Below, piece by piece: positions 20,107-20,809 of a stretch of DNA of 61,526 nucleotides (positions are counted from its first letter, which is position 1; the number at the start of each line of letters is the position of its first letter). The DNA is taken from the sequence record PV340546, one strand, 5' to 3'. This stretch comes from Escherichia phage PhiR5_2. Below the pieces are notes generated by a model. The model was given only the letters and a program-made list of their open reading frames with translations. It made no database searches and was not told where the DNA came from. A program made the position numbers and the translations under genes.

Positions 20107-20326
20107 CTCACAATTCCACAGCTTGATGATTGTCTGGCTGCCGGAGAATTTGTTAAAAATTGCATCGCGTGGTGAATCCCCCTCAGCGGCGGGGCATCTG
20201 GCAAAGTGTATGATCCAGCGAACATGCAAATTCAGTAGCCAGGCTGAATTTACCGGGAGGCACCTGGCACCATGCGACAGACAGAAATTAGGCTATACTT
20301 CAGCCCCTCTCCGGAGGGGCTTTTCT
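20107..20326 (+). repeat. structured element A (paralogue of element B), ends in an intrinsic terminator
   Basis: Conserved blocks CTCACAATTC, ATTGTCTGGC, TTTGTTAAAAA, GGTGAATCCCCCT, ACCGGGAGGCACC.TGCACCATGC; terminator GCCCCTC tccg GAGGGGC TTTT. Confidence 0.6.
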
Positions 20327-20515
20327 GTGCAGGATGTGTCACAGTTTCCTGAATTCTGAGTACTGTCCTGTTACTCAGGGTGCTATATTTTCTGACGTGA
20401 TGAAAGTCTGCCGGAAGGCGGAACGTATCGGAAATGACCCAGTAGAGAAAACGTTGACTCAGATACCGATGCTGAGTTACCGGGAAACCGGCATCACATG
20501 ACCGCTATCCTTCCA

Positions 20516-20538
20516 GGCTCGCTCCGGCGGGCCTTTTT
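20516..20538 (+). terminator. intrinsic terminator between elements A and B
   Basis: GGCTCGC tccg GCGGGCC TTTTT. Confidence 0.5.
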
Positions 20539-20575
20539 ACTGCAGAAAACAGTTTTCCCGTAAAATGCCACGTTA

Positions 20576-20809
20576 CTCACAATTCAGGCTGGCGATTATT
20601 GTCTGGCCAGCGGGAAGTTTGTTAAAAAAATATGGCATGGTGAATCCCCCTGTGCGGAGGGGCATATCAGCGACAGGTGTTTGGTCACACCCCTTATCCT
20701 TTCTGGTGCGGGTTCAGGTGCTGATACTGAACTCACCGGGAGGCACCCTGCACCATGCATGAACGGTACATAGCGCTACTCTCCAGCCCCTCTCCGGAGG
20801 GGCTTTCTT
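20576..20809 (+). repeat. structured element B (paralogue of element A), ends in an intrinsic terminator
   Basis: Same conserved blocks as element A, with compensatory changes in two hairpins; terminator GCCCCTC tccg GAGGGGC TTTCTT. Confidence 0.6.

Follow-up and report, generated by a model that had tools for sequence, protein, structure and literature searches.

Background

Small RNAs (sRNAs) of the STnc100 family (Rfam RF02076) have a published location in the late region of lambdoid phages and are reported to bind Hfq. We analysed positions 20107-20811 of a DNA stretch of 61,526 nucleotides (nt) from Escherichia phage PhiR5_2 (sequence record PV340546), hereafter called the window, and concluded that this region is probably a head-to-tail array of three self-terminated sRNA genes of the STnc100/PasD family, which we named unit A, unit M (the divergent one) and unit B.

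Several relatives of these units have been described. In EDL933, 11 STnc100 copies are transcribed and one of them was confirmed by Northern blotting; all 11 tabulated copies lie far apart (PMC5331693), whereas those of the present locus are in tandem. The copy that follows stx2B overlaps the Hfq-bound sRNA EcOnc27/sRNA103 (PMC12711010, PMC7873438) of enterohaemorrhagic Escherichia coli O157:H7, which was recovered by Hfq-CRAC (crosslinking and analysis of cDNAs) and gives a Northern signal (PMC4104026, PMC7873438). The array resembles these genes in its location, after the slot of the moron coding sequence (CDS) 3' of the late promoter PR' and before nanS-p and the lysis genes (PMC12370729; PMC12711010), and in its plan, a structured body followed by an intrinsic terminator. 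It differs from them in having three tandem units, the middle one below the Rfam threshold, and in lacking stx.

Tree et al. reported convergent sRNA pairs between the moron CDS (3' of PR') and the next phage open reading frame (ORF) in at least eight Sakai prophages (PMC4104026). In the dyads EcOnc27/AsxR and EcOnc06/AgvB, as at the present locus, a sense STnc100-type gene is opposed to a short antisense sRNA gene with the terminators facing each other (PMC4104026; PMC7873438), and the pair sits between the late promoter and the lysis genes. Here, however, the sense side is triplicated and the antisense RNA falls outside the Rfam AsxR and AgvB models.

The RNAs PasD1 and PasD2 of enteropathogenic E. 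coli (EPEC) E2348/69, for which EcOnc13 is a homologue, are abundant and Northern-visible, depend on Hfq for stability and have partners detected by RIL-seq (in which interacting RNAs are ligated and sequenced) (PMC8550237). A 2026 preprint by Zhu, Shabalina and Storz ties PasD to STnc100 (bioRxiv 10.64898/2026.05.13.724894). The PasD RNAs share with the units described here the helices P1-P5 and a pseudoknot, as we read them from the PasD1 sequence; their promoters are laid out in the same way, with a 5' end at the closing stem, and they too lie after Q. On the other hand, they score 37.7 and 41.4 bits against RF02076, which is sub-threshold, have a reduced P5 and a longer U-rich linker, and their copies are reported to be dispersed, not tandem.

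Identification of three STnc100-type units

An earlier reading of this DNA, made from the letters alone (the sequence-only reading), had described two paralogous structured elements here and had suggested a covariance-model search. In an all-Rfam scan, unit A matched RF02076 at 20137-20330 with 138.7 bits (E 9.5e-32) and unit B at 20606-20815 with 129.9 bits (E 1.7e-29), both over model positions 1-206 and both at about three times the gathering score of 47 bits. Unit M, at 20366-20541, scored 30.0 bits (E 6e-4), which is under the gathering score. Membership was judged by the model score, by the presence of the closing stem, hairpins and terminator, and by location in a lambdoid late region; A and B show all of these, and M lacks only the score. 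The alignment of A with B covers about 250 nt and has 81% column identity, and the unit period in the array is about 235 bp. The family membership, structure, terminators and synteny of the array are direct results of this analysis. The features of the three units are as follows.

20166..20326, plus strand: unit A RNA (RF02076), with linker 20276-20301 and terminator 20302-20321 followed by a U-tract
20167-20174/20268-20275, 20178-20193, 20194-20196/20225-20227, plus strand: unit A helices P1, P2 and P3, from family covariation
20228-20235/20244-20251, 20253-20267, plus strand: unit A helices P4 and P5, with the pseudoknot 20197-20202 with 20238-20243, from family covariation
20396..20539, plus strand: unit M RNA (sub-threshold RF02076), with linker 20498-20514 and terminator 20515-20534 followed by U5
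20397-20402/20492-20497, 20408-20421 (CUGCC-GGAA-GGCGG), 20422-20424/20453-20455, plus strand: unit M helices P1, P2 and P3
20456-20462/20472-20478, 20480-20491 (CCGG-GAAA-CCGG), plus strand: unit M helices P4 and P5, with the pseudoknot 20427-20431 with 20466-20470
20635..20811, plus strand: unit B RNA (RF02076), with linker 20759-20784 and terminator 20785-20804 followed by UUCUUGUU
20635-20642/20751-20758, 20646-20661, 20662-20664/20707-20709, plus strand: unit B helices P1, P2 and P3
20710-20717/20727-20734, 20736-20750 (one C-U mismatch), plus strand: unit B helices P4 and P5, with the pseudoknot 20665-20672 with 20719-20726

The two elements of the sequence-only reading are real and belong to RF02076 from end to end, but the units number three, not two; the third terminator that it saw between the two elements is present, but is not free-standing and ends the divergent unit M. 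Its preference for structured RNAs over coding genes is borne out by RF02076 matches far above threshold and by covariation in 40 relatives (see below), and the protein-binding arrays that it also allowed are unnecessary given the sRNA-family match. The hairpins that it quoted were all found; AATTCAG..CTGAATT in A and GTTCAG..CTGAAC in B form helix P4, and CCCCCT-loop-GGGG is helix P2.

Unit A recovered P1, P2, P4, P5 and the terminator in its minimum free energy (MFE) fold, with a z-score of -3.18. Between A and B, double compensatory changes were observed twice in P4 and four times in a further long-range helix. In unit M, the helices P1-P5, the pseudoknot and the terminator are all kept via compensatory changes while the loop sequences differ; its fold has a z-score of -2.61, the centroid structure consists of P1, P2, P4, P5 and the terminator, and the MFE structure has the pseudoknot helix in place of P4. 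Unit M was present in 673 of 5426 complete E. coli genomes (12%), in two versions of at least 99% and about 86% identity. The helix differences between M and its 86%-identical orthologue in strain HS13-1 are all pairing-neutral (U-G to U-A, C-G to U-G, A-U to G-U and C-A to U-A). Unit M is therefore not a wreck. The linkers, 17-26 nt long, are GACAGACAGAAAUUAGGCUAUACUUC in A, AUGACCGCUAUCCUUCC in M and AUGAACGGUACAUAGCGCUACUCUCC in B.

Since RF02076 exists, with a published location and Hfq binding, the array is of a kind already known and has been correctly rediscovered at its published place. What is added here is the sub-threshold third unit, the refined fold with its pseudoknot, the promoter placement and the widespread occurrence of self-terminated tandem arrays.

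The family fold is a five-way junction with a pseudoknot

Relatives were gathered by an exact two-block pattern, which matched 85 stretches in a collection with one genome per species, as well as at least 120 viral contigs. The 85 stretches come from more than 20 named Enterobacterales genera, including Salmonella, Klebsiella, Citrobacter, Kosakonia, Leclercia, Pantoea, Erwinia and Rahnella. After clustering of the relatives at 85%, 129 distinct units remained. Folding of 40 diverse cores by RNAalifold gave the closing stem P1, P2, a 3-bp P3 around a variable insert, P4 and P5. Because the consensus leaves only AAU (between P1 and P2) and A (between P4 and P5) unpaired between helices, the core is a compact five-way junction. 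In the 40 relatives, 96.1% of the consensus cells were paired, compared with 41-46% when the partners were slid, and 121 cells were double-compensated, compared with 16-36; the observed values were reached in none of 500 shuffles. Covariation was seen in all six P4 pairs, and one P3 pair had 21 double changes. The search anchors cover P2, one half of P5 and the inner portion of P1, and the invariance of these parts is therefore forced by the search. These tests, together with those on the 129 units, agree with the sequence-only reading in that the secondary structure is conserved and the stems co-vary.

A pseudoknot joins the segment immediately 3' of P3 to the apical loop of P4, the strands being UCUGGC/GCCAGG in A, UAUCAGCG/UGCUGAUA in B and AUCGG/CCGAU in M; in PasD1 we read the corresponding strands, AAUGAUC with GAUCAUU, from the sequence. 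In the MAFFT alignment the pseudoknot columns were out of register, with only about 60% pairing on the best anti-diagonal, and for this reason we used a self-versus-cross permutation test, in which true and mismatched partners had equal register freedom. Across the 129 units, six consecutive positions were paired in 83-87%, each with four Watson-Crick pair types, compared with 26-57% in the flanks; the permutation test gave z = 13.3, and the observed score was reached in none of 5000 permutations. P4 and the pseudoknot may form simultaneously or as alternatives. The pseudoknot and P3 are absent from the RF02076 consensus structure line, and neither these two nor the promoter placement within the Rfam model was found in that line or in the literature that we located. 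The linker and the P3 insert are unconserved in the family, the linker being its least conserved part and the core its most conserved.

Putative promoters and terminators of the units

Promoter-like and terminator-like sites were found for each of the units.

20130-20135 and 20151-20159, plus strand: unit A promoter-like site, TTGTCT, 18-nt spacer, TGt-TAAAAA; predicted start about 20166 (by sequence reading)
20381..20389, plus strand: unit M putative extended -10 promoter, TGcTATATT; predicted start about 20396 (by sequence reading)
20599-20604 and 20620-20628, plus strand: unit B promoter-like site, TTGTCT, 18-nt spacer, TGt-TAAAAA, as in unit A; predicted start about 20635
20302-20321, 20515-20534 and 20785-20804, plus strand: terminator-like hairpins from the terminator scan, the first being the same as the third (AGCCCCTCTCCGGAGGGGCT)

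The -10 block of unit M is conserved in the HS13-1 orthologue, and the sequence 5' of the block diverges. Among the 129 units, a -10-like TANNNT ends exactly 8 nt before GGTGAATCC in 48, and lies within 6-11 nt before it in 80, compared with 28 of 129 in a control interval. The TTGnnn motif has its peak 31-35 nt upstream, corresponding to a spacer of 17-18 nt. Ungapped upstream logos gave no promoter signal, and the motifs emerged on direct position counts. The 5' end of PasD1 estimated from RNA-seq is GCAUGGUG, the start of P1, and lies 3' of TTGACT-18-TAAAAA. From the promoter positions in the family and the 5' end of PasD1, it follows that the first 30 or so model positions of RF02076 are probably promoter DNA. 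A putative sigma-70 promoter at a fixed distance would thus place the transcription start at the closing stem.

A terminator scan of 1.9 kb on both strands returned 11 terminator-like sites, compared with 1.9 +/- 1.3 in shuffles, and the three intrinsic terminators of the sequence-only reading all lie where it had placed them, above chance. Full-length units in other genera have their own terminator each. Tandem copies were found on at least 26 of 199 locus strands (a lower bound), with up to five matches per locus. Arrays of four to five STnc100 matches are present in loci from other genera and viral contigs (L134, 4349-5513; L071, 5406-6576; L015, 894-2010); these include core-only copies (model positions 31-147), and in two of the loci there is an isrI match between units.

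Some other signals were noted around the promoter-like sites. Minus-strand promoter-like matches at 20156..20129 and 20625..20598 are the reverse reading of a conserved block and were given no weight. A conserved CTCACAATTC block lies about 12 nt 5' of the -35 elements of A (20108-20117) and B (20577-20586) and also in the HS13-1 orthologues; CUCACA is the reported target motif of the PasD seed, and the block could serve as an operator or UP-like element, or for pairing within the late transcript. By eye we also considered whether the GGCACC block holds a sigma-54 promoter and whether there are GGA loops of the CsrA type; both were rejected, the spacing and pairing being unfit.

A convergent sRNA gene on the minus strand

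Downstream of unit B a candidate sRNA gene runs in the opposite direction.

20816..20890, minus strand: convergent sRNA gene, 5' end uncertain; terminator stem 20845..20826 followed by U8, with CCUUGCC single-stranded just 5' of it
20925..20920 (TTGCGC), 18-nt spacer, 20901..20896 (TATTAT), minus strand: promoter-like site of the convergent sRNA

This sequence is about 92% identical to the EPEC RIL-seq sRNA E2348C_1409.E2348C_1408.IGR, which has the homologues EcOnc08/21/42 and the cfa 5' untranslated region as top partner, and in which CCUUGC pairs with GGCAAGG-type sites. The EPEC homologue is estimated at 182 nt, in which case the 5' end of the convergent sRNA would fall near 21000. Its fold has a z-score of -2.12, and the element that a Shiga toxin (Stx) 2a phage has at this position is about 88% identical to it. 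Because the Rfam models AsxR (RF02703) and AgvB (RF02702) gave no match at E <= 10 in 18500-22000, we did not name it AsxR; AsxR was also not found at gathering threshold in the Stx2a phage locus examined. With this gene, the published dyad layout is complete.

A related arrangement was observed in prophage PP6 of E. coli E2348/69 (L213; NC_011601, 1443800-1446200), where the STnc100 copy is 5'-truncated beside an ISEc13 transposase gene, and its terminator and the convergent sRNA gene are intact despite this truncation.

Genomic context of the array

The window is a stx-negative lambdoid prophage of the E. coli chromosome, with 99.9% identity over 4.2 kb to strain SCU-104. RefSeq has no feature in the 1.45-kb gap between the gene at the Q position and the esterase gene. 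The landmarks around the array are listed below.

18970..19596, plus strand: Q-like late antiterminator gene (PHROG 753 'anti-termination protein Q-like', E 3.5e-68)
19983..20087, plus strand: lambda-like late-leader segment, 86.7% identical to lambda 44936-45039
21047..23021, plus strand: nanS-p type esterase gene (DUF1737 + SASA + DUF6645, from Pfam), the first late gene after the array

The product of 18970-19596 had no Pfam match, including the three Q families, and is labelled hypothetical protein in RefSeq; with its PHROG 753 match, it is a poorly characterised Q type. The genes ninB-ninE-rusA-ninH precede it in a near-identical annotated genome. The sequence-only reading had taken the late leader to be lambda-like up to about 20100, and the similarity to lambda indeed ends at about 20088. 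The terminator tR' can be recognised at about 19756-19790 by eye and is absent from the list of the terminator scan. The gene nanS-p has seven G at 21229-21235, compared with six in SCU-104, where an intact CDS of 657 amino acids is present, and is split into ORFs 21047-21268 and 21315-23021; this frameshift is either a pseudogene mutation or a homopolymer sequencing error. DUF1378, holin and lysozyme genes (Pfam) follow downstream.

The order in an Stx2a phage is three tRNA genes, stx2A, stx2B, STnc100 (185.7 bits, 75 nt after stx2B) and nanS-p, and the 3' half of unit B through the start of nanS-p is about 83% identical to the region 3' of stx2B in Stx2a phages. Strain HS13-1 of E. coli has tRNA genes for Ile, Arg and Arg directly before the same A-M-B array, and no stx. 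Both layouts agree with the claim that the array occupies the slot of the tRNA genes and stx in Stx phages. The array of phage vB_EcoS-640R1 is flanked on one side by a different Q type with tRNA-Met and on the other by the opposite-strand gene iraM. For a census we used one genome per species and took, both upstream and downstream of each locus, the two closest ORFs on its strand; since these ORFs were called naively, the counts are lower bounds. Downstream (143 ORFs, 72 loci) there were at least 33 ORFs of holin families, at least 14 of lysozyme and at least 2 of Rz, and upstream (143 ORFs, 73 loci) at least 11, 3 and 2 of Q families and at least 4 of DUF1133. The position between Q and the lysis genes is thus seen in related phages and strains as well as across species, a point that the sequence-only reading had proposed to check for homologous elements.

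Several observations concern other parts of the window. The late leader contains a tRNA-like remnant at 19861-19989, with an acceptor stem UGUGGUG/CGCCACA, a D-arm and a T-arm GCUGG-UUCGAUU-CCGGC; about 55 extra nt stand at the place of the anticodon arm, ARAGORN and the Rfam tRNA model made no call, and the fold z-score is -0.97. Rfam matches to isrK (16311-16385), C4 antisense RNA (16412-16496) and c4-a1b1 (16298-16350) lie in the early-right region just 5' of an ORF6N (antirepressor-like) gene, and these RNAs at 16298-16496 resemble an RNA-controlled module of the P1/P7 or IsrK type. Near the end of the window, the minus strand has two copies of sRNA-Xcc1 (73.4 and 69.1 bits), about 530 bp apart, at 60605-60690 and 61139-61227.

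Possible mode of action and alternative explanations

Each unit, as we picture it, would consist of a sigma-70 promoter, a core of about 100 nt with five helices locked by a pseudoknot of 6-8 bp, an unstructured linker of 17-26 nt that is different in each copy, and a terminator. By homology with PasD1/PasD2 and EcOnc27/sRNA103, the lysogen would produce discrete RNAs of about 145-175 nt, Hfq would bind and stabilise them at the terminator and U-tail, and pairing with mRNAs would occur through the linker just 5' of the terminator. As the linkers of A, M and B are unrelated, the three RNAs would have different targets, that is, three specificities. The terminators may in addition block transcription from the sRNA promoters into nanS-p and the lysis genes in the lysogen. 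Antitermination by Q is established in lambda, and by analogy Q-modified polymerase would read through the terminators of the array in lytic growth. Promoter use, Hfq dependence, the linker as seed and insulation are all suggested rather than observed. In PasD, the seed UGUGAG sits in the linker adjoining the terminator, and the PasD chimeras map to that 3' part.

Several points weigh against sRNA genes acting in this way. Units A and B have the -10 element TAAAAA, which is weak because the final T, usually essential, is missing; their U-tracts (UUUUCU and UUCUUGUU), being short and interrupted, are ill suited to termination as well as to Hfq binding; and the single-sequence fold of unit B is unexceptional (z-score -1.24). 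The seed UGUGAG is in none of the A, M and B linkers, so that PasD shares only the fold, and the function of the relatives is stated as not elucidated (bioRxiv 10.64898/2026.05.13.724894). Furthermore, conservation is lowest in the linker (the putative seed) and highest in the core, an order opposite to that of typical Hfq-dependent sRNAs. It is because of this last point that we keep another explanation, in which the conserved core is the functional part, a module that binds a small ligand or a conserved protein of the host or the phage, and Hfq binding is secondary; the RNAs would then be decoys or sponges, or scaffolds that bring the partner to targets chosen by the linker. The near-invariance of loops and junctions in the Rfam consensus and across the genera, the unconserved linkers and P3 insert, the compact junction (0-3 nt between helices) with its covarying pseudoknot, and the core-only copies in arrays of other genera all speak for such a module, and tandem copies would be compatible with a need for dosage. 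But no candidate partner gene co-occurs, the flanks having nothing in common but Q and lysis genes; the region is matched by no riboswitch or protein-binding family of Rfam; the invariance inside the two search anchors is forced by the search and can not be counted; and M and PasD persist without conserved P2- and P5-loop sequences, PasD being abundant and having many Hfq-dependent RNA partners. We consider this explanation unlikely, though worth retaining. With somewhat less reserve, but still tentatively, we suggest that STnc100/PasD RNAs could be two-part modules, with a near-invariant core that binds a protein or ligand and a specificity linker that evolves freely.

The elements might instead have no function in trans and work purely in cis, as an insulator or terminator cascade or by a riboswitch-like or put-like control of the late operon. 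Four terminators, namely tR' and those of the three units, separate PR' from the first late gene; the location between Q and lysis genes is conserved; and a structured domain followed by a terminator looks superficially like a riboswitch. Terminating riboswitches do have a compact pseudoknotted multi-helix domain before an intrinsic terminator; they differ from the units in that here there is no consistent downstream gene, no competing antiterminator and a putative promoter for each unit. What comes after a unit may be a further unit or a gene on the opposite strand (iraM in vB_EcoS-640R1), so that no gene is consistently in a position to be regulated; no alternative antiterminator pairing was seen, and an unconserved linker of 17-26 nt separates core and terminator. 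The fixed distance of the promoter-like sites argues for separate transcripts, the elements are found with at least four unrelated Q types, and relatives accumulate as discrete Hfq-bound RNAs (PMC8550237, PMC4104026). A purely cis-acting role is quite improbable on these grounds, and we rejected a riboswitch or put-like element for want of a consistent downstream gene, in view of the units' own putative promoters, and because no Rfam riboswitch matched. That the blocks encode small proteins is hardly credible. Each unit is spanned by an ORF (20066-20359, 20334-20501 and 20565-20762), and some EDL933 STnc100 copies have ribosome footprints, with ribosomal coverage values up to 3.2 (PMC5331693); but A and B differ by indels of 1, 3, 11 and 1 nt, which put the invariant GGTGAATCCCCC block in different frames in the A- and B-spanning ORFs. 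These ORFs have no Pfam match, and the substitutions track base pairing, not codons, so that the coding explanation was rejected; block conservation outside any reading frame had been noticed in the sequence-only reading too. The latter had also named decayed tRNA genes or flanks of a lost stx operon, here without function, as what the blocks might turn out to be, and the tRNA-like remnant just upstream (19861-19989) and the similarity of the 3' half of B up to nanS-p to sequence downstream of stx2B (about 83%) could be taken in this sense. However, the 'stx flank' of the Stx2a phage is itself an intact STnc100 gene (185.7 bits), every helix is kept by compensatory change between paralogues, orthologues and genera, and ARAGORN called no tRNA anywhere in the window and the Rfam tRNA model (RF00005, E <= 10) none in 20107-20811, on which the tRNA or tRNA-remnant explanation of the array was rejected. 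Functionless remnants, contradicted by the covariation, have next to no probability in our judgement.

Significance

We consider the finding to be of modest importance; an unannotated gap of 1.45 kb contains what appear to be four sRNA genes, and one of them, unit M, escapes the Rfam threshold although it is in 12% of complete E. coli genomes. Relatives beside stx2 have been statistically linked to the outcome of haemolytic uraemic syndrome (PMC12711010). The refined anatomy, with the predicted start at the closing stem, the five-way junction, the pseudoknot, the linker and the terminators, offers handles on the role of this prophage RNA family, and the proposed insulation is a testable idea for sRNA genes that sit between a late promoter and lysis genes. 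If the modular explanation were true, these would be guide-like or decoy RNAs, and arrays of the A-M-B type would be cassettes of multiple specificity.

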